Positions 10,623-63,784 of a stretch of DNA of 64,000 nucleotides are shown in pieces. Below the pieces are notes generated by a model. The model was given only the letters and a program-made list of their open reading frames with translations. It was not told the origin of the DNA and did no database searches. A program made the translations under genes and the position numbers. This stretch comes from Candidatus Woesearchaeota archaeon (lineage in GTDB: Archaea > Nanobdellota > Nanobdellia > Woesearchaeales > JAIPIC01), in assembly GCA_021734865.1 (NCBI GenBank), contig JAIPIC010000001.1, positions 4,166-68,165 of the forward strand, in the 5' to 3' direction. Each line of letters opens with the position of its first letter. Position 1 is the first letter of the stretch.

Positions 10623-10650
10623 GACGTTTTGTAAAACGTCTTTGATTTTT
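10623..10650 (+). terminator. perfect palindrome GACGTTTTGTAAAACGTC followed by TTTGATTTTT
   Basis: Read directly from the sequence, about 55 nt after the HD-gene stop. Confidence 0.4.
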
Positions 10651-10986
10651 GGATTTGTCGGCATGATTTCATCATAACCGCCTCCATAATTCTCCCAACT
10701 GATGTACTAAAACATATTTTAATATATAAATGTTACTATTCTGTATACTAAGTTGATGGGCTTCTATTACACCCGTCCCTAGTTCCACTATCAATGGGCA
10801 TTCTAAGAATTTGGTGTTGTTTTTTTCAGACTGTAATTCTGAACTAATCTGGAAATAACAAATCTCAATTCCAAAACACATAAATACTAAATTAGTACTA
10901 ATTAATTAATTCATTAGTAATGCTTTAGATATAGGGATTTTACCGTCAATGTACACTATGGTATACTAAGCTATTCAATCAAAATA

Positions 10987-10994
10987 TTTATATA
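10987..10994 (+). promoter_or_regulatory. TTTATATA TATA-box-like element about 60 nt upstream of the AbrB-like ORF, flanked by three palindromic AGTACT sites (10895, 11001, 11022)
   Basis: Read directly from the sequence. A sigma70-like TTTACC-17-TATACT element also exists at about 10940-10968, so interpretation depends on the domain of life. Confidence 0.3.
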
Positions 10995-11053
10995 CCAATA
11001 GTACTTTTTTATCAATGTTTTAGTACTAAACAATTTTTTATCTTGGTGACTGA

Positions 11054-11227
11054 ATGGTTAGAGTTGTAGTAAATAATGGGCAATACAAACTTACGATCCC
11101 TAAGGATCTAGCTAATTCTAAAAGGTGGACCAAAGGAACCAAGCTTCGATTTGTAGAAGATCTCGACGGGCGAGTTTTCATTGTCGAACTCGAAGGAACA
11201 GAAAAGGTAAATGATGAACTGGAATAA
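11054..11227 (+). CDS. AbrB/MazE/SpoVT-family swapped-hairpin DNA-binding protein (57 aa). Not in the ORF track.
   Basis: Manual translation gives MVRVVVNNGQYKLTIPKDLANSKRWTKGTKLRFVEDLDGRVFIVELEGTEKVNDELE, which fits the looped-hinge-helix pattern (x-IPK-x-R...G..L.....DG.h.I). The stop at 11225-11227 overlaps the giant ORF start (11211) by 17 nt. Confidence 0.55.
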   Translation: MVRVVVNNGQYKLTIPKDLANSKRWTKGTKLRFVEDLDGRVFIVELEGTEKVNDELE

Positions 11228-14200
11228 TTCAGATATACAGGGAACTGGACCTAAGATAAGTCCAACTAGGGTGCTAGTATTTGCCATCTTAATAGGGGCC
11301 ATAATGCTTGCGGTATACTACTCTGGTCCAAGCCACATTGCCCGCTCACTGGAGATATCACCAGCATTCGACACTGAGAACAATAGGCTTATTGGTAATA
11401 TGCTACTTTCTGAGGGGGACTTTGATGCGGGCACACATATTCGAGTCACATTGGATAACAAGTCAGCTACGATGACCACTGGATTACTTAGGGAGCTTCT
11501 TTGGCCTAGCGCAGGATACGGATACGGTTATGGTTATTTAGATATGGCTCAATTGGACCTATCGATCTTCGATTTGAATGTGTCAGAATCAGGAATTTAC
11601 ACATTACTTGTGGAGATTCTTAAGGAAGGCAATGTTATGTTCAGTGTTTCATCTGAACTAAATATAACCCTTAACAAAGTACCAGCTTATACTGGAAATT
11701 TAAGCGTTATCAATCTTTACGTCAATGAGACCACAAGCATTGATGCTTCACTCATTTTCTGGGACCCAGACGATGACAACCTGACTTTTGGCTGTTTGGC
11801 TGGTCAGAATATCCAATGTCAGACAAGCACACCAAACTACTATGTAGAGATTGTACCTGAAGATAATTTTACTGGTTCATCATGGATAGTCTTCAGCGCA
11901 TCTGACGGGCTGAATACCAGCACTAGTCCAGAGATTAGGATAAATGTCCTTAATGCTCTTGAAGAGACTGATCAAGGTGAAGATATGCAGTATACAGCTA
12001 CTGTAGGTAAACCTGTTAAGTGGAAGAAACGGATCATTTCTGACGGATCTGATCTGAATGTGAACATTCCTCCTGAAGCAAAATCAATCAGAATAGTAGA
12101 TAAGACTGAGAAAATGAATCTGGAGGATGCTACACTTGTCACTGTAAGTAATGTCTCAATGGAACTTGATGAGCATGAAAATGTGGTTGAATATATCGAG
12201 ATCAAAAAGGAGATTGAATCTGGAAATAGGGCTGCAGATGAATCAGAAAAAAGCAATGAGGACGCAAGAATATCTGGTGATACCACCTCTGCAAGTGAAA
12301 TGGATAAAATAAGAGATAACAGTACTAAAACTAAAGAATTGCAACTGGAAGAACTTTCTAAAGAAATCAACATAAATATTAATGATGTTATCGAGGGGAT
12401 TGCTCCTTCTTCAGAGGAAGAGAATAAATCAAAAGAACTTGCTGTTGAAAACAATAAAACTTCACTAATAGATTTGTATTATGAGACTCCTGCACCAGAG
12501 ATGGATGAAGAAGTCATAGTAAATACGAGTGAAGTATTTAGGAAAGACGTCGTTGTGCATTCTAATGCTTCTCTGCATTATAACAATATCACTGCATTCA
12601 GTGATGTACCTGAAACAAACAGGTCAAAAGTCCGCTTATACTGGAAGATCAATGGTTCCAGAGTTGATGTAACAGATGACGAAAGATTCAATGTGAGGCT
12701 TACTGACACAAATAATAACCTGCTTATAGACCGGATTTACTGGACCGTACCGCAGCTTAGTGAACAGTTCTTTGAGATTTCACTTGATTTATTGGACTTA
12801 AGGATAGTGGATACAGCAGTTTCAAGCAACTGGACAGTTTTCTTTGAAACATCCGAGAGTTATGAGACACTTTATATTAAAAATCTTAACACAGAAGATA
12901 TTTCTTATAACTCCCTTTATGTTTGGACAGGTTCGACATGGAATCCAAAGGACCAGATTACTAACCCAAACGTAGGAAATAATTATACCTTGTCTACCCC
13001 ATGGAATGGCTCAGAATATACAAAGGGTAAGATAGTCTTTACAATTACAAATGTAGAGAATTATAGATTGAATTTCACATTTGGAACCTTGAGTACGATA
13101 GCTGAAAACTTTGATTACTATGAATATAGAATAAATCCAACAACACAGAAATTCAGTATGGATTTTAATAATCTGGAGTTTTATTATTATCTCTGCTCAT
13201 TCAATGAAAGTTACTGGGAGTGCAATCCTTCAGTTGGAGATTATGGATTTAATGGATTCAACAGAACACTAGACGGAAATGAATCTGAGCATTATCTTAG
13301 GCTTCCTAAGAATTCGTCTGTAATGAGCATGAATATAACTGTTGAGCCGCTGTGCAATACCTCCCTATTTTCGTACAGTTATGCTGGCAGTGTTGGAGAG
13401 ACCCATGTCACGTCTGCAGACATAAGTACAGATGATCTTGAAGAAATGCTTGTAAGTTCAGACACTCTGCTAAGAACGTATGATACATCAAAGATTAACA
13501 TATGGAATTTCACAAGCCCATACACGATAAATGATATTGTATCTTCAAATATTGATGTTGATTCTGCATTTGAAGAGATTATTGTTACCGCAGACCTTAA
13601 TCTATTTTTACTTAATGCATCTGGACAGCAAATATGGAATATCAGTGATGAAGTTGATTATACTTCTGCCACATCAGCTATTGTCAAGACAGTTATCAAT
13701 AGAACAAGATACGATCAAGAAAACGCTTCGGGTATTCATTGTATTGGATGCGACAACAATAATTATGAGGTTAGGTATTCTCTGCCTTACACTGTTTCAG
13801 ATCCAGTATCATCCATGTGCTTTATTGAAGCAGCATACAATTATCAGGGAACAACACAAGGCAACTTAAAATTCTTACTAAACAACACGGAAAGAACCGT
13901 CAATAAATACAATATATTCACTTCCAATATACTCAACTACAATAACTCTGATGGGGTCGCAGATAATTTTGAGTGTTTGGGATGTAATTACAGTATGCTT
14001 AGGCAGCAGTTCAACTTTGAGTTTGATCAACCTGTAGATGCAAATGATTGTTATATTCAGACTGGCATCAATTACGTCGGCTCTAACAACCCAAATATAT
14101 CTCTCGAGATTCAGGATGTGACATATGATATTGATGAATCAGTCATAACAACAGAGGATGAACAGAATTATTATAATTTTACAGGAGTGGGCCCTACAGT

Positions 14201-17200
14201 CTCAAGATGCATAGGTTGTCAGGATTCAAATACCAGAGTTATCCATAATATTGATTTTACCTTCGAGGACAAATCAGATAAGTTTTGCTATGTGCAGTCA
14301 CCATTAAATTACAGGAACAATAAAAATGGAAGCCTTTTCTTTGAATTAAACAATACCATTTACAATGTCGATACATCAGCAATAAGTCATACAAATGAAC
14401 AGAATTTCAACAGGACTGATAATATTGTTGACAGTATTATGTGTGTTGGATGTTCTGACTATACAGATTCTGCATTTACACTTAATTACAATATCTCAGA
14501 TCCAGTAAATGCAAACTCATGCTATATCGATGCATTGTTTAATTTTAAGGGGAACAATTCCGGAAACCTCACACTGGAGCTCAACTCAAATACATATGAT
14601 ATTGATGAAACAAAGATCACAGAAAGCAAAGTTATGGAGTACACATATGATAATTATCTTAATACATCTTCAGGCCAGATCGATTTCAACCAGTTAGGAT
14701 TCCTTGGTCTTGTGGAGTTCAGCCTTGAAGATATAACTTTCCCTGAACCTATGGCAGCCGGTGAATGTTATGTGAAGACTGCTCTTTGTTATAATGGTTC
14801 TAAGACAGGTCAACTACTTCTTTCATTCTCTTCTGGGGGTGAATATGAAATCAATAATACAGACATTGTGAAATGTGAAACTAAAGATAATTTTTCATGG
14901 ATAGAAACAGAAGTCCCATGCGCCAAGATTAACTCTTCCAGTACTGTGTCTATGTATTGTAATGATAGTTGCTCTGGTGCAAACTATTACAGAATGATGG
15001 TAGATAATAATACTGTTGCTCCTAATGCTGTTTATATTTCTGATGAGTGGTATTATCCAAATACGGACTTTAATTATACATATATGCTGCACATCTGGAC
15101 CAATGCTTCATATGTATCAAACTGGACCAGGACTGAAGTCAATTGTTCAGACGTAACACCAGGATTGAATGTCACGTTCAGTTGTTCAGATTGTACGGAT
15201 GATAATGCATTCTATTTAATGGCTGACCAAAACTCAAGTGGTAATTCACATTACAAAAAAAGCAGTACCTGGTATCCTGTCCTTTATGCGGACCATCTTG
15301 TGAGGTTTTATACAAATACTTCGCTACGATACGATTATATTGACACAGAAGTTGATTGTAATGATCTTAATTCTTCCACGAATGTTTCATACTTCTGTGT
15401 TGGTTGTACAAATGTGTCAAATTATCAGATCATGATGTCAAGTAGCAGTTCAGGGAACGCGTCTTTTTCAATCAATAATGGTACAACTGTATCCACAATA
15501 GATGAAGAGGATACTCTAACAAGGTTAAGGATCAATAACAGGCTTTTTGACTGGATTTATACTGAAGTGAATTGTTCCTTGATAGAGAATGCTGTAAATA
15601 TCACTTATGAGTGCGATGGATGTAATGATTCTAACAATTTCCACATCATGACTGATAGTAATTCTAATGGTAATTCGTTCATTTCCAGGTATAATGGTTC
15701 AGTATTTGCAAGTACTGCAAATGATATCATGAGTTTTATGTACTCAAACACGTCATTAAAGTATTCTCTTGTAAACACACCAGTTGGTTGTGACGACGTT
15801 GTTGCTGGAAACAATATCACATTCTTTTGTGAAGGATGCGATGATGATAATCACTATAATGTCTTGTCGGATAACGCTTCCAGAGGAAATACAACAGTAT
15901 CAATTGATGGGGGAAGTGAATGGACCTCAATTGAAAGTTCTGATCAGATGGTCAGTATTCTTGCATGGGAGAATAAAGGATATGATATTATTGTTGCTGA
16001 TGACACATATAATTATGTGAGGTCATTCAATTCCAGCGCAGATGGGTTATGGAATAAGAGCGTATTAGGCGACATATATGATCTAAGTGCAGCTGATATC
16101 AGTCCAGACTATGATGGTAATGAAATTCTGGTCGGAACAAGACTTAGAGCATATCTCCTGAACGCCAGTGGAGATGAAATCTGGCAGATGAGTGGGTGGA
16201 TTAAGAGTGTTGCTGCAGGAGAACTGGATAAAGGTGTTAGAGGTGTTGTTGGGAACAATAATGGAGAAATATATGAGTGTGACAGTATTGGCTGTACTCT
16301 TAAGTATTCATGGGGCACATCTATTAATAAGATTGGAATAGGGAATATCACAATTGACGATGGCAATGAGATCATTATCACAGGAGCAAATAAAAAAGTT
16401 CTTGTGCTGAACAATAGTTTTGGATATGTTTCAGAGCATACGATCGAATCAAATGTTTATGATATGCATATCGGAGATGTAAATCTTTTTAGCGGAGAGG
16501 AAACCGCTATAGTCGCACAGAATAATAATGTCGAACTGTTCAGTTTCCAACTACCTTATAACATTGGAATTGACGCAGGAAACACAGATGACGTTTTCAG
16601 TTACAATGGTTACTTAAGTTCCAAGACCATCATCAATGATGGAGAGTTAGTTAATGCTATTAATGCATATTTGGATACTTGTAATGATAAGTTATGTAAT
16701 GTTCCTTTCAATTTCACTGCTCAATCCCAGTCAAGATTCAACATAAGAGGTCTTTCGGTATCATTCAAGTACAATGCTTCAGGAGATGTGCAGTATGAGG
16801 ATAGTGCATGGAAATGGTCAAAAACAGATGATATTGATGTTGATGCAGAATATTACTATCTCGCAAGGAATTTCTCATATGGTCTGCCTGCTATTCCTAT
16901 ATATGTAAGAGAGATTACACCATTCACTGGGCTTGGTGATAATTTCACATTCAATCTTGATGTATGCAACAGTTCAGGTGCGTATGCTGATCTGGGTTAT
17001 ACATCACCAAACGGTATCAGTACTAATTGCGATAGGGATTACTTTATCAGCAACACTATACAAAGAGCAAATGATTATCTCTGGTTTAATAACAGCGCAA
17101 GAGAATCTCCTGTCATTGCAATGGTTTCAGAAGGGGACAATGGCAATAACCATGAATATACTGTCAAACTTGTCAGAAATACAGAATATATGCCAACGAT

Positions 17201-58640: not shown

Positions 58641-60736
58641 AAATAAAAAGAGGTGCTATTTGTATACTGATACTAATTGGTATCATGTCTGTCGGATACT
58701 TTGAAGTATTTGCTGCAAACGAAGATATAGCTGCAAGCATAAGAAATCAGTCAAGCAACTTAGTTATCAATATAACCTGTGGTAACAATAGATGTGAAAC
58801 TGGAGAGAATGAATATAATTGCCCTCAAGATTGTTCAAAGTCGCCATTTGACTTTAAGATGAGTTTTACTAATCCGCAGATATGGCTTGGTGCTGAAGAG
58901 AAGATTCATTTCATTGAAATACAGAATAATCTCAAAACAGAAATAACTGTTAATGTGAATTTAATAGGGGACACTCTTAACAGACTAATTCACATTAACA
59001 AGACGACTTACGTTATTAAATCAAGAGAGACTGGGATTGTCAATCTTGTTATTCGGGCCTGGGATGTTACTCCGGGAGTCTATAATGGATATATAAACTT
59101 AAATTCTGCTAAGAAGAATGTCACGATACCTGTTGGAATACAAGTATATGATGAAATAAAGGATACTATTGATGTTCAGTCTAACATTATCGGAGATGAA
59201 ATCGAAAATGATGGGTCAATTAAACTCCATATCACAATTTATAATCCTAATTTCAAGACAGTCAATATGTCAATATCATATTATATTAATAATTCTGTCG
59301 ATGGGCTGATGATTTATAATTCAAGTGAGTATATGTTAATAAATTCTTCAAGAGTATTGGTCAGGGATTTTGACTTGAACAGTTTCAATCTGACCAACAG
59401 GTTTTATTCACATAATATGACAGTTAAACCTGGAACATTAAGAGAAGTGCCACCAAGCGACTATTATGTCACCGTAAAATTCAACCTTGATAACCAAACG
59501 ATCTATCTGACTGATACTGTGATAATAAGCAAGCCTTTCTGGACAAAAGACAGAATATGGGTAGTGATTGGAAGCATATTGTTTATTGCTATAGGGGGGG
59601 GAGGACTATTTGGCTACAAAAAATATATGGAACTAAAAAAGAATAAAGCTAGGTATGTTTTCCCAATGGATTATAGTAAATTACCACAACAGGATAATTA
59701 TTCTTTGTGGTTAGGATTGATTGCAGAAACCAAAAAAAAGGCCTTTTATAGTATGAATGATTTGACAACCCATGCACTTGTTGCTGGTTCTACTGGTTCT
59801 GGTAAATCTGTTTCTGCCTCAGTAATTGTGGAAGAGGTTCTTGAAAAAAAGGTACCTGTAATCATTTTTGATCCAACCAGTCAGTGGACTGGATTTGTAC
59901 GGCCGTGCAAAGATAAAAATTTATTAAAATACTACCCAAAATTTAGTCTTACAGATGACGATTCCAGACCATATAAAGGTTTAATCTATGATGTAAAGAG
60001 TCCTGACGTCCAGATTGATTTCAAGAAATTTATGAATCCTGGAGAAGTGACTGTATTTAATTTAGGTAATTTAAAGGTAGGAGAATATGATATTGCAACG
60101 AAAAATATTGTTGATACGATATTTCATATGAGATGGGAAGAATCTCCTGAACTCAAGATGTTATTGGTATTTGATGAGGTGCATAGGCTACTTGAGAAAT
60201 ATGGTGGTAAAGGAGGATATATTGCGCTTGAGAAAGGAGCAAGGGAGTTTAGGAAGTGGGGAATCGGCATGATAATGGCATCACAGGTATCTGCAGACTT
60301 CAAAGAGTCAATAGCTGGGAACATCCTTACAGAAGTACAGTTGAATACAAAGTCTATGGAAGATATTAAGAAAATTGCACAAAAGTATGGGACTGAATTT
60401 TCAGAGAGGATCTCTAGAGAAGGTATTGGTGTTGCTATGATCCAGAATCCAAAATATAATGATGGTAAACCATGGTTCATCAATTTCAGACCTACTTACC
60501 ACTCACCACATAAGATTGCAGCTGAAGAGCTTGAGATGTATGCTAAGTTCACCGATCAGCTCAGCGAGATTGAAGTTCAAATTACTAAGCTAAGAGAGAA
60601 GAAGGTTGATACTTCTGATATAGAAATGGAAATTAAGTTAGCCAAGGACAAGTTAAAAGAAGGTCATTTCAGGATGGCAGAAATTTATATAAATGGATTA
60701 TTTGAAAATTTAAACAAATTGAAAGGAAAGAAATGA
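58637..60736 (+). CDS. mini-paralog of the giant protein C-terminus (699 aa): signal peptide, CPEDC-type Cys module, juxtamembrane Ig-like domain, TM helix, HerA/FtsK/VirB4-type ATPase
   Basis: The start ATG overlaps the giant stop (ATGA). MKIKRGAICILILIGIMSVGYFEVFA is a signal peptide, IWVVIGSILFIAIGGGGLFGY is the TM helix, and the ATPase region is about 90% identical in amino acids to giant aa ~15440-15740. The ectodomain is homologous to giant residues after 56700 (SPFDFKMSFTNPQI vs FPFDYELDFLNPEV). Confidence 0.9.
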   Translation: MKIKRGAICILILIGIMSVGYFEVFAANEDIAASIRNQSSNLVINITCGNNRCETGENEYNCPQDCSKSPFDFKMSFTNPQIWLGAEEKIHFIEIQNNLKTEITVNVNLIGDTLNRLIHINKTTYVIKSRETGIVNLVIRAWDVTPGVYNGYINLNSAKKNVTIPVGIQVYDEIKDTIDVQSNIIGDEIENDGSIKLHITIYNPNFKTVNMSISYYINNSVDGLMIYNSSEYMLINSSRVLVRDFDLNSFNLTNRFYSHNMTVKPGTLREVPPSDYYVTVKFNLDNQTIYLTDTVIISKPFWTKDRIWVVIGSILFIAIGGGGLFGYKKYMELKKNKARYVFPMDYSKLPQQDNYSLWLGLIAETKKKAFYSMNDLTTHALVAGSTGSGKSVSASVIVEEVLEKKVPVIIFDPTSQWTGFVRPCKDKNLLKYYPKFSLTDDDSRPYKGLIYDVKSPDVQIDFKKFMNPGEVTVFNLGNLKVGEYDIATKNIVDTIFHMRWEESPELKMLLVFDEVHRLLEKYGGKGGYIALEKGAREFRKWGIGMIMASQVSADFKESIAGNILTEVQLNTKSMEDIKKIAQKYGTEFSERISREGIGVAMIQNPKYNDGKPWFINFRPTYHSPHKIAAEELEMYAKFTDQLSEIEVQITKLREKKVDTSDIEMEIKLAKDKLKEGHFRMAEIYINGLFENLNKLKGKK

Positions 60737-62823
60737 AAGATTCAATTATGATTGCAAAGGAGAAACTGGCCCAAAGCGAGTTTGACAGTTTTGATATTGA
60801 TAATATTATTGAAAAGATTGTCATGAAGAGGCGGGCTTCAAATGTCCAGAGTTCTGTTGAACAGAAAGATCAAGTTATCGGATCAAAGAATAATTCAACA
60901 CAATCATCACAGATATCAACTCAGGATAGTACTGTAACAGATACTGTTAGTGGGAATGTCAAAGAGTCAAAGGGTGTACCTGAAGGAACTACTCAAAATG
61001 ATTCATCAAAAGGTGCCGATAATGGAACAGCAAATATAAATGTAATATCAGAAGATGATATTAAAGAAATAATTAAAGGTGCTTTAGTAAGAGGAGTTAA
61101 AATTAATTCTATTTCGGATCACTTAATTCAAAGAGGATTAGACAAGGACCGTTGTAATAATATTATTCATGATTCTTTCAGCAGTATTGATAGGAATCAA
61201 ATAATTGCTGAACAACAAATTGAAGACAAGAAAAAGGCTAATGAGGGTGATAATAATATGTCGCAAAACGAGGATAATCAGAATCAACCAGATGAAAAAG
61301 TAAGCAAGGAATCAGATGCTGAACAAAAAAATGTAGAGGAAGCAAAGGAGCAAACTGATGAACCATCTAAAGACAAACAAGGTAAAGATGCAGAGGATTA
61401 TGATCGAAGCAGAGATGCATTCAAACCAGGAGAATTAGCTGAATTGGAAAAGGCTGAAGCAGAGAAAAATAAAAGTCTAATGGATAAGCTATTCGCGAAA
61501 AAAGAAAACACTGAAAAAAATGATGACAACGGTAAGGAAGTGGTAATCGAGCGAGATGTTTTTGATGGTAGTTATTTAGATAGGGCTACAAAAGCAGAGA
61601 TCAGAGAAATAACCAACAGGATAATGGAAGAATATAAGAAAAGAACAGATGACATACAGTTAATGGTTGAAAAGGTTGATGGTAAAATAGCAAGGGAGAA
61701 GGAAGTTGATGAAGGTCTGAATATGAGAATCTCTGATCTTGTTGAAAAGATTGGTGAACTCCGTTCAACAATAATGGGCAGGGAGAGATTTTTTGACAAG
61801 ATGGAAAATGATTTTGAATCAATGAAAGATGTTATTCACGATCTGAAGCCGGAGAGAATAAAGAAAGAATTTGAAGATAAAGAGAAGTCAATACTCCAGT
61901 TGGACGCCAAAATTGAAAAAGCAACTAATGTTCTTGAGACGATGTCAGTTGATCTGAAAAAATACAAAGAAATAATGACTAAGATTGTAAGTTATGAAAA
62001 TTTGCTTGCTACTCTAGAGGACTTAAATAAGAAAGTCAAGAAAATTGATGAGACTGAAAGATATATGGAAAAGATAGGAGGACGTTTGGAGACTTCATAC
62101 TCTGATCTTAACAAGAAATTGGGTACTATAGTAACTCATGATGAAAAACTTAGGGGATTTGAAGAAATGACAAAAGAGTTCACGAAGAATATTGACCTTC
62201 TCCAAAATAAACTTGAAAAGAAGCTCAATAAAAATGATATTGAGAAAGTGTACCCCGAATTTGAGAAGAAATTCAATGAACATTTTGGTAAGATCAATGA
62301 TGAGATTGCAGTGCTTAAAGATGCCCTTTTCAGAAAGGAAGTTAATGAATCAAATAGTAGCTCTATTGTCTACCCAAACCAAACCACTGATCAGACAATC
62401 AGTAACTCAGGAGTTTCTTCACCTGGAAACCAGAAGGTCTCAGATTCCAGCAGTGCGACCTTAAATGCTCCAGAAAATAGTGTTCACGTTGAAAAGGCTC
62501 CTAGTCAAAACCAAAAATCCGTAAGCCCACAAACACAAAACCTATCTAGGGAATCTTCAACACCTAGTAGCGCACCTAAGAATGAGAACAAGATGAGCAT
62601 TAAGGAGAAAGAACTAGTGAATGCATTAATTAAACATATCGAAGCAAAAATTGATAGTGATCAAGCACCTCAATATTATAAAAAAGCTGTCGATATGATT
62701 ACAAAATACCCTGAAGATCCTTCAATCAACCAACTGAAGAACAAACTGACTGAAATAAGATCAAAGATGCTAGGATCAGATGGTCCTGAAATTAAATTCA
62801 GTTGGGGAAACTGGAATAAGTAA
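60733..62823 (+). CDS. acidic coiled-coil protein (696 aa), probable cytoplasmic partner/scaffold
   Basis: ATGA overlap with the paralog stop. There is no TM helix or signal peptide. It has S/T/Q-rich linkers, a long E/K-rich region and heptad-like segments (aa ~280-520, e.g. LMVEKVDGKIAREKEVDEGLNMRISDLVEKIGELRS). Confidence 0.75.
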   Translation: MKDSIMIAKEKLAQSEFDSFDIDNIIEKIVMKRRASNVQSSVEQKDQVIGSKNNSTQSSQISTQDSTVTDTVSGNVKESKGVPEGTTQNDSSKGADNGTANINVISEDDIKEIIKGALVRGVKINSISDHLIQRGLDKDRCNNIIHDSFSSIDRNQIIAEQQIEDKKKANEGDNNMSQNEDNQNQPDEKVSKESDAEQKNVEEAKEQTDEPSKDKQGKDAEDYDRSRDAFKPGELAELEKAEAEKNKSLMDKLFAKKENTEKNDDNGKEVVIERDVFDGSYLDRATKAEIREITNRIMEEYKKRTDDIQLMVEKVDGKIAREKEVDEGLNMRISDLVEKIGELRSTIMGRERFFDKMENDFESMKDVIHDLKPERIKKEFEDKEKSILQLDAKIEKATNVLETMSVDLKKYKEIMTKIVSYENLLATLEDLNKKVKKIDETERYMEKIGGRLETSYSDLNKKLGTIVTHDEKLRGFEEMTKEFTKNIDLLQNKLEKKLNKNDIEKVYPEFEKKFNEHFGKINDEIAVLKDALFRKEVNESNSSSIVYPNQTTDQTISNSGVSSPGNQKVSDSSSATLNAPENSVHVEKAPSQNQKSVSPQTQNLSRESSTPSSAPKNENKMSIKEKELVNALIKHIEAKIDSDQAPQYYKKAVDMITKYPEDPSINQLKNKLTEIRSKMLGSDGPEIKFSWGNWNK

Positions 62824-63310: not shown

Positions 63311-63784
63311 TTGAATCAAAGCAGTAAACTGGAGGAATTTATTATAGCTGTCCGTAGACTCAAGACTGTTTCTAATCTATCTGATTCAGATATTATCAAC
63401 ATAGCAAAAAAAGAGATTGTAAGAAAACCAAGCATACCAATATCCATCTTTGCATCAAATCTTGGTATACTCGAGACTGCTGTAAAGTATCTAAAGGAAG
63501 CTTTTGGTTTGACTTATGCAAAAATTGCTCTTATGTTAAATAGAGATCAAAGAACCATATGGGTATGCTACAATAGGGCTTGCGCAAAAAACAGTAAGAA
63601 GTATGAGATGGGGTTTTCAACAGGCGATATTGAAATTCCAATAGAAATACTGGCCAATAGAACACTGTCACCCCTTTGTGCAGTATGTAATTATCTTTTT
63701 AATCTTGGTGTGACAAAGACCACTATTGCAAAATTACTCAATAGGAAAGTGCAGAATATCTGGTATGCAATAAAGAAAGGATGA
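63311..63784 (+). CDS. small DNA-binding protein with two tandem sigma70-region-4/LuxR-like HTH repeats. Its apparent start codon is TTG.
   Basis: There is an internal duplication: IALMLNRDQRTIWVCYNRA versus IAKLLNRKVQNIWYAIKKG. Each is preceded by L..L...(V/C).YL...(F/L)G(L/V)T, like HTH region 4. The first in-frame start after the upstream stop is TTG at 63311, and there is no in-frame ATG until aa ~75. Confidence 0.4.
   Translation: MNQSSKLEEFIIAVRRLKTVSNLSDSDIINIAKKEIVRKPSIPISIFASNLGILETAVKYLKEAFGLTYAKIALMLNRDQRTIWVCYNRACAKNSKKYEMGFSTGDIEIPIEILANRTLSPLCAVCNYLFNLGVTKTTIAKLLNRKVQNIWYAIKKG

Follow-up and report, generated by a model that had tools for sequence, protein, structure and literature searches.

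The question that this locus raises is what a gene of only 57 codons is doing directly in front of, and partly inside, a gene of 47.4 kb. The DNA analysed here (the window) is a stretch of 64,000 nucleotides from a contig of a Candidatus Woesearchaeota archaeon, and the contig is contained in run SRR12088349. An earlier note, made from the letters alone, had pointed to a small open reading frame (ORF) upstream of the giant one, to the overlap between both and to a likeness to the DNA-binding fold of AbrB, MazE and SpoVT, and had suggested that such a coupling ties a regulator, or an antitoxin-like partner, to its target. The answer favoured here on computational evidence, which is considered rather probable, is that the small gene encodes an AbrB-type dimer that regulates, and probably represses, its own promoter, and that it heads, and is translationally coupled to, a SPEARE-like surface-protein operon.

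The small gene and its protein family

The small ORF (positions 11054-11227, forward strand) starts with ATG and encodes a protein of 57 aa with a predicted domain of the AbrB/SpoVT/MazE fold and no other domain. Four nt 5' of the ATG lies a putative Shine-Dalgarno-like element, GGTGA (11045-11049, forward strand), which is also present in L064, the locus of an 87%-identical relative. In a search against 5.8 billion proteins, 38 homologues were retrieved, with lengths of 46-64 aa and 55-87% identity to the window protein; all those with a named source belong to Woesearchaeota or Nanoarchaeia. A scan of one genome per GTDB species yielded 42 further species-level loci of the small gene, for ~80 homologues in all, again of 46-64 aa and from Woesearchaeota/Nanoarchaeota.

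The alignment of the small genes contains 10 invariant positions, and the core signature of the protein is MV(K/R)VVVNNGQYK(I/L)TIPKDLA..(K/R)GW...T.LRFVED..G; behind it comes a tail that is short, charged and variable. Past residue ~46, this tail comprises 0-20 residues, with no conserved column in the family alignment; even between the window protein and its relative from L064 it differs by an indel. Among the first 47 codons of these two genes, 13 differ (10 synonymously, three conservatively), a pattern that shows, in the sequences compared, purifying selection on the small gene. Furthermore, an independent gene caller predicted the identical 57-aa product in a Logan assembly of the same organism. 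The minus-strand ORFs of 47 and 64 aa that overlap the small ORF have no support. In view of the ~80 homologues, the synonymous-biased changes and the independent gene call, the small ORF has to be regarded as a real, selected gene, present with the sequence that the earlier note had quoted.

That note had also called the protein a close fit to the AbrB fold. This is sound for the family and for the predicted fold but overstated for the single sequence. In profile searches, the window protein alone stayed below threshold against PF04014 (E=0.04; 14.3 bits, with a cut-off of 24.7), as it did against TIGR01439 (E=0.04), but 32 of the 39 aligned family members matched PF04014 at E<=0.01 (best, 1.1e-7) and 13 homologues carry a precomputed match to it. 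At family level, the profiles thus place the small protein in the SpoVT/AbrB-like superfamily (PF04014, TIGR01439).

An AlphaFold2 model computed from the family alignment (mean pLDDT 78.9) has a beta-beta-alpha-beta-beta topology, with strands at residues 3-7, 10-14, 31-35 and 41-45 and a helix at 17-22. The best Foldseek matches to this model in the PDB were SpoVT (top), MazE, C56, C68, a truncated histone-like protein (5itm) and VapB, with RMSD values of 1.5-2.5 A over 45-48 residues; the MazE match had a probability of 0.98 and a TM of 0.6-0.7, and 2mrn, 1ub4 and 6nkl (MazE and AbrB-fold antitoxins) were among the matches, all with E-values that are non-significant for so short a chain. 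The family profile likewise matched C56 (7xi6), C68 (3o27) and SpoVT in the PDB, weakly and ranked below a lectin; C56 and C68 (E 0.03-0.14) are its best archaeal matches. The predicted structure is, in consequence, an AbrB-like half-barrel of the type beta1-beta2-alpha-beta3-beta4. As for the single-sequence search of the PDB, it gave only designed beta-propellers and a lectin, which were dismissed as artefacts of composition or of repeats.

With 174 matches at E<=1e-3 in a library of 1.84 billion representatives, the family is small; it is confined to DPANN Woesearchaeota/Nanoarchaeota and marked by an invariant NNGQYK-TIPK signature of its own. Within a well-known fold, it represents a new subfamily of narrow distribution. 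The strongest profile matches in the same library are natural fusions of 97-118 aa with two AbrB-like domains per chain (P0039-P0044, P0048, P0064), and in L043 (1-480) two tandem small genes overlap by 4 nt. These fusions and tandem genes look like stages in the duplication and fusion of a dimeric DNA binder, and they agree with the obligate dimer expected of the fold, for which the palindromic form of the candidate binding site gives further indirect support. Phage records and viral contigs yielded no relatives of the small gene and, for this reason, a viral or plasmid origin, as for C56 and C68, is unsupported.

Surface-protein genes overlapping the small gene

The giant ORF (11211-58640, forward strand) runs uninterrupted over 47.4 kb and encodes 15,809 aa. 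It shares positions 11211-11227 with the small ORF in a different frame, which confirms the overlap of 17 nt described in the earlier note; the overlap is 14 nt if translation starts at the ATG at 11214. The latter is probably the conserved start of the giant gene, and the partner start in L064 aligns with it, the second ATG of the window ORF. A start at 11304, proposed by the automatic caller in Logan, was dismissed because the signal-anchor helix would be deleted and because relatives keep the overlapping start. In such metagenomes, gene callers may systematically misplace the start of a giant gene if it overlaps an ORF that is small or was not called.

In the giant protein, the following parts can be distinguished: (i) an N-terminal signal-anchor helix (residues ~21-39); (ii) a huge repetitive ectodomain, unassigned except for NHL repeats near the C-terminal end of the protein; (iii) a transmembrane helix (~15417-15439); and (iv) a cytoplasmic ATPase, with matches to DUF87, HerA_C and TrwB in the last ~370 residues. 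The next gene, which encodes a HerA/VirB4-like ATPase of 699 aa (58637-60736, forward strand; DUF87/HerA_C matches), overlaps the stop of the giant ORF by 4 nt and, because of this overlap, it probably belongs to the same operon. The operon probably ends with a 696-aa ORF (60733-62823, forward strand) that has no Pfam match and, in its turn, overlaps the ATPase gene by 4 nt. On the other side, a 441-aa ORF, also with no Pfam match, lies upstream of the small ORF.

A similar arrangement is known from the SPEARE loci of Nanohaloarchaeota, where a huge ectodomain is followed by a C-terminal transmembrane helix and a cytoplasmic VirB4/HerA-like ATPase, and where the next gene encodes another such ATPase (PMC10266531; PMC6642349). 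The giant gene of the window and the ATPase gene downstream share this layout, and the operon can be termed SPEARE-like, by architecture only, when likened to the published description. Both papers, like the giant-gene survey (bioRxiv 10.1101/2023.11.21.568195), are silent on any upstream AbrB gene or operator. With its 15,809 aa, the giant protein exceeds the 10,000-aa threshold for giant proteins, rarely passed in Archaea (bioRxiv 10.1101/2023.11.21.568195), and it is much longer than the largest protein of cultivated archaea, of 9,409 aa (PMC10266531). Just past the operon, a 157-aa ORF (63311-63784, forward strand) has a weak match to a helix-turn-helix of the Sigma70_r4_2 type. A similar protein is encoded upstream of the small gene, in divergent orientation, in the loci of P0024 (L013, 9392-9829, reverse strand; L014; L015). 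This may point to a second regulator or be coincidental.

Across species, the small gene keeps this kind of company. In ~32 of the 42 species-level loci, a gene for a membrane or secreted protein lies on the same strand and overlaps or abuts the small-gene stop, with partner-start offsets of -4, -8, -11, -14, -17, -20, +3 or +6 nt. Overlaps of 4 to 20 nt recur in most homologous loci, amid unrelated flanks, which speaks for the coupling of a regulator to its target gene that had been suspected from the window alone. Of five homologues examined on long contigs, four directly precede a huge gene (3,226, more than 2,590, 5,598 and more than 3,504 aa), with completely different flanking genes in each case, whereas an HU gene and a tRNA synthetase gene come after the fifth. 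Many of the records that bear the module are titled "uncultured Methanosarcinales archaeon" or "Euryarchaeota archaeon SM23-78" (L018, L020, L021, L023, L025, L028 and others); given a module of the Woesearchaeota/Nanoarchaeota type, these titles are probably placeholders or wrong taxonomic labels.

Partners of at least 1,000 aa, including those that run off the fetched DNA beyond 1,000 aa, were found in 18 of the 39 evaluable cases, compared with 4 of 211 neighbouring ORFs (1.9%) in the upstream flanks of the same loci. In general terms, the partner is a large surface protein that is giant only in some loci. A strongly hydrophobic segment is present within the first 130 residues of most partners (27/32), and residues ~110-547 of the giant protein are homologous to at least 11 partners (blastp, 1e-11 to 1e-29). 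Apart from two apparent exceptions, the remaining partners are membrane or secreted proteins too, with lengths of 290-650 aa. The shared head region (window ~11540-12850; loci L016, L021, L028, L035, L041, L046, L048, L050 and others), to which no Pfam family corresponds, may represent a conserved domain of these surface proteins that has not yet been described.

Regarding translation, a Shine-Dalgarno-like element precedes 13 of 32 partner starts and often consists of the AAGGAG in conserved Lys-Glu codons; the remaining 19 have none, which is compatible with termination-reinitiation. In several loci (e.g., L049, L051, L054, L033), the AAGGAG of conserved Leu-Lys-Glu codons lies 10-13 nt 5' of the partner start and may double as its Shine-Dalgarno sequence, which would amount to dual coding in the overlap zone.

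The putative promoter and its candidate palindromic operator

In the window, a TATA box read from the sequence, TTTATATA (10987-10994, forward strand), with an A-rich BRE-like stretch just 5' of it, would constitute the promoter of the small gene. Three candidate operator sites accompany it: (i) O1, TAGTACTT (10999-11006), which lies 4 nt 3' of the TATA box and has one mismatch to the 8-mer palindrome TAGTACTA; (ii) O2, a 22-nt near-palindrome (11014-11035) formed by the inverted repeat AATGTTTTAGTA/TACTAAACAATT, with the core TTAGTACTAA at 11020-11029; and (iii) O3, a distal and exact palindrome TTAGTACTAA (10892-10901), ~160 nt 5' of the small ORF, with a half-site-like TAGTAATG 22 nt downstream. 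O1 and O2 are invariant in L064, and O3 is kept there. Exact copies of TTAGTACTAA occur only twice in the 64 kb of the window, in O2 and O3, both upstream of the small ORF. The distance from O1 to O2 is 22 nt (2 x 11), and O2 lies near the expected transcription start. Between the window and L064, the promoter block is 92.6% identical, whereas the N-terminus of the giant protein has heavily diverged.

Other elements were observed in the same region. The sequence GTATACTAAG appears twice (10743-10752 and 10961-10970), and a block up to the TATA box (10946-10985) is almost invariant in L064; they may be further half-sites or sites of another factor. Some 55 nt past the stop of the 441-aa ORF there is a terminator-like hairpin, GACGTTTTGTAAAACGTC, with a T-run behind it (10623-10650, forward strand), by which the small-gene promoter would be shielded from upstream transcription. 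Scans of the window for Rfam families and tRNAs gave no match and, therefore, no known RNA element accounts for the conserved upstream blocks. A sigma-70 promoter scan found no excess of sites over shuffled sequence, its model being inapplicable to an archaeon.

Nearly every copy of the small gene is preceded by a TATA box and then by the palindrome TAGTACTA. Within the 110 nt upstream of each copy, the order is TATA box, TAGTACTAA and a second (T)TAGTACTAA(T) nearer the ATG, which it often abuts. In 21 of 43 loci, the distal operator (the first site) is preceded, at a distance of 0-11 nt, by a TTTAWAWA box; the gap between TATA box and first site has its mode at 4 nt (11 loci), the same as in the window. 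The extended consensus is a 14-bp palindrome, AATTAGTACTAATT, that is, (AAT)TAGTACTA(ATT). The 645,612 nt searched contain 81 exact sites of TAGTACTA, 66 of which are found within -200..0 of a small-gene ATG, a zone that makes up 1.3% of the sequence. Since the 15 sites elsewhere do not exceed the ~18 that base composition predicts, the possibility that the palindrome is a general promoter element of these genomes was dismissed. In the reverse direction, a metagenome scan for the pattern TATA-N4-site-N(2-32)-site gave six matches, and all six precede an AbrB-like ORF with an overlapping transmembrane partner.

The sites are also arranged in register. With one mismatch to TAGTACTA allowed, the distance from one site to the next is an exact multiple of 11 bp (11, 22, 33, 44, 55, 66, 99) in 31 of 45 cases, and the phasing has a Rayleigh p of ~1e-10 at a period of 10.5-11, an optimistic value because the loci belong to related species and are not fully independent. 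Between sites, the in-register 11-mers agree with the motif in 4.8 of 8 positions on average, versus 1.5-3.6 out of register, and this resemblance suggests an array with strong outer and weak inner sites. Around a quarter of the copies depart from the canonical layout: ~8-10 of the 42 loci show no exact motif or no coupled partner, and in two of these, L024 and L044, the small gene sits inside another operon; P0002, the nearest full-length homologue with good context (78% identical), has neither partner nor exact operator.

This conserved, helically phased palindromic candidate operator in the gene's own promoter, an element absent from the earlier note, constitutes the strongest evidence for a regulatory role. 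According to the standard inference of comparative genomics, a palindrome that occurs almost only at the own promoter of a dimeric DNA-binding protein is that protein's operator. To go by this exclusive association, the small protein would bind double-stranded DNA and would itself recognise the motif, binding of the motif by a different factor also being conceivable. In the open-access literature, the motif string is found only in primers and unrelated oligonucleotides.

A different factor is what is assumed by a rival explanation that is decidedly unlikely: the small protein would be a general nucleoid or chromatin protein of low specificity, and the palindromes would serve another protein. 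Its model is Sso7c4, a domain-only archaeal AbrB-fold homodimer that binds the DNA major groove and has been described as a chromatin protein (PMC3159460). The small protein has the size and fold class of Sso7c4 and shares the archaeal domain-only AbrB fold with it, with C68 (pSSVx, 3o27) and with C56 (pSSVi, 7xi6), all of ~55-68 aa; in addition, the 5itm "histone-like protein" is among the Foldseek matches, many homologues have basic tails and one adjoins an HU gene. Unlike those three proteins, however, the small protein is fixed before surface-protein genes and has a defined palindromic candidate site. A chromatin role does not account for a palindrome confined to the protein's own promoter (66/81 in the forward count, 6/6 in the reverse scan), and it gives no reason for the overlap with surface-protein genes in about three quarters of the loci.

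A probable autoregulatory first gene: proposed mechanism, rivals and meaning

According to the favoured explanation, that of autoregulation, the small gene would be the first of an operon of ~52 kb formed by the small gene, the giant gene, the HerA/VirB4-like ATPase gene and the 696-aa ORF. Its product would act as a swapped-hairpin dimer on the palindrome (AAT)TAGTACTA(ATT), at least two copies of which would lie on one face of the DNA, n x 11 bp apart, from the TATA box across the expected transcription start. Cooperative binding on that helix face would then feed back on the protein's own promoter, most likely as repression, by blocking either the recruitment of the polymerase or initiation. 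The transcript would presumably start at the expected position and cover both small gene and giant gene, with reinitiation at their junction. As the regulator would be the first product of translation and its last codons coincide with the beginning of the giant gene, a single mRNA with coupled translation is proposed; in this manner, the promoter would be informed of the operon's output in a matter of seconds, well ahead of the completion of the 47-kb gene.

Archaeal repressors usually act between the TATA box and the start, ~22-27 nt downstream of the box. As the candidate sites sit between the TATA box and the expected start, negative autoregulation is proposed, and repression appears preferable to activation. 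Given that the proximal site abuts the ATG in many loci, it may be part of the transcribed leader, and a mechanism at the RNA level or a roadblock may operate through it. Cooperative binding to multiple sites is a feature of AbrB, and the small protein shares the DNA-binding fold of Bacillus AbrB and SpoVT. But while these regulators have a C-terminal multimerisation or GAF domain and act on many genes with loose specificity, the small protein lacks any second domain, and its candidate sites are local and of sharp definition. The C-terminal oligomerisation domain of Bacillus AbrB (~94 aa) is absent from the window protein, of 57 aa, and from the family, of 46-64 aa.

A more far-reaching version of autoregulation, which is fairly unlikely, would make the small protein and its 11-bp-register array a dedicated governor of very long surface-protein genes, one that polymerises on phased sites, shuts the promoter and cross-regulates operons. 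Were this true, only one or a few polymerases would enter each gene of 5-50 kb, the regulator being made in the first seconds of the transcript. Since all copies in a genome share one operator, the surface-protein operons would cross-regulate, resulting in a coordinated or mutually exclusive display of host-contact proteins.

Instead of a repressor at the promoter, the small protein might be a processivity or coupling factor for a very long gene, loaded on the leader or the mRNA in the manner of RfaH/ops, or the small ORF might be a mere translated leader that feeds ribosomes to the next gene. Such ideas, which are highly doubtful, can appeal to the proximal site that abuts the ATG in many loci and is probably transcribed, to the 19 of 32 partner starts that have no Shine-Dalgarno element and hence depend on the upstream ORF, and to the strong enrichment of very long genes among partners. 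However, the strong conservation of the amino acids speaks against a mere leader, many partners have only 300-650 aa and some copies have operators without a partner. No AbrB-fold protein is known to act as a processivity or coupling factor.

The idea of an antitoxin-like partner, already present in the earlier note, has lost its ground. It would make the small protein a type II antitoxin of the MazE/VapB/PrlF kind, or an immunity-like partner, that neutralises the downstream protein and exerts conditional autoregulation. The Pfam family is named MazE_antitoxin, homologues carry the JGI label "antitoxin component of YhaV-PrlF", and the layout fits, as in E. coli mazEF: an N-terminal swapped-hairpin domain, a small first gene overlapping the next one and a palindrome proposed as operator of its own promoter. 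Actually, MazE represses its own promoter through a palindrome (PMC4333400). Nevertheless, no known toxin family (MazF, PIN, YhaV and similar) adjoins the window gene, whose partner is a 15,809-aa surface protein, and the partners in the 42 related loci are diverse membrane or secreted proteins; in many loci they are mutually unrelated, yet the small proteins are 55-87% identical. Antitoxins require a conserved toxin-binding tail (PMC4333400), but only 8-20 residues, variable in length and sequence, follow the AbrB domain, and the family alignment contains no conserved C-terminal extension of that sort. Unlike MazE operons, moreover, the downstream gene encodes a giant secreted, membrane-anchored protein, and the sites stand in an 11-bp register beside an archaeal TATA box. 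All in all, an antitoxin is very improbable. Finally, the suspicion that the small ORF is a chance open frame in the AT-rich DNA 5' of the giant gene, prompted by its length of under 60 aa and its own sub-threshold Pfam score, is refuted by the comparative data and has practically no probability left, in the face of ~80 homologues of the same length, a synonymous bias, a confident fold and a TATA box and Shine-Dalgarno element of its own.

For autoregulation, a first gene that controls its own operon is a known design. On the other hand, no earlier description was found in the open-access literature of the coupling of this subfamily to large or giant DPANN surface-protein genes, of the candidate operator TAGTACTA or of its 11-bp register. 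Searches of the same literature for AbrB together with Woesearchaeota or DPANN gave nothing relevant (one figure legend has AbrB as an antitoxin label), and nothing was found on the control of genes of 10-50 kb. The small gene, the palindromes and the overlapping surface-protein gene look like a dedicated, previously undescribed control module.

Giant surface proteins are regarded as the key host-contact devices of DPANN archaea (PMC6642349, PMC10266531). For their genes, the module offers a testable control element: an easily made protein of 57 residues, a precise palindrome of 8-14 bp and a promoter layout shared by dozens of uncultured species. As a natural case of helical phasing in an archaeal promoter, the exact 11-bp quantisation of its sites is unusually clean. 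In addition, the module is of practical use as a genomic marker, both to recognise surface-protein operons and, in fragmented metagenomes, to assign giant genes their correct start codons.
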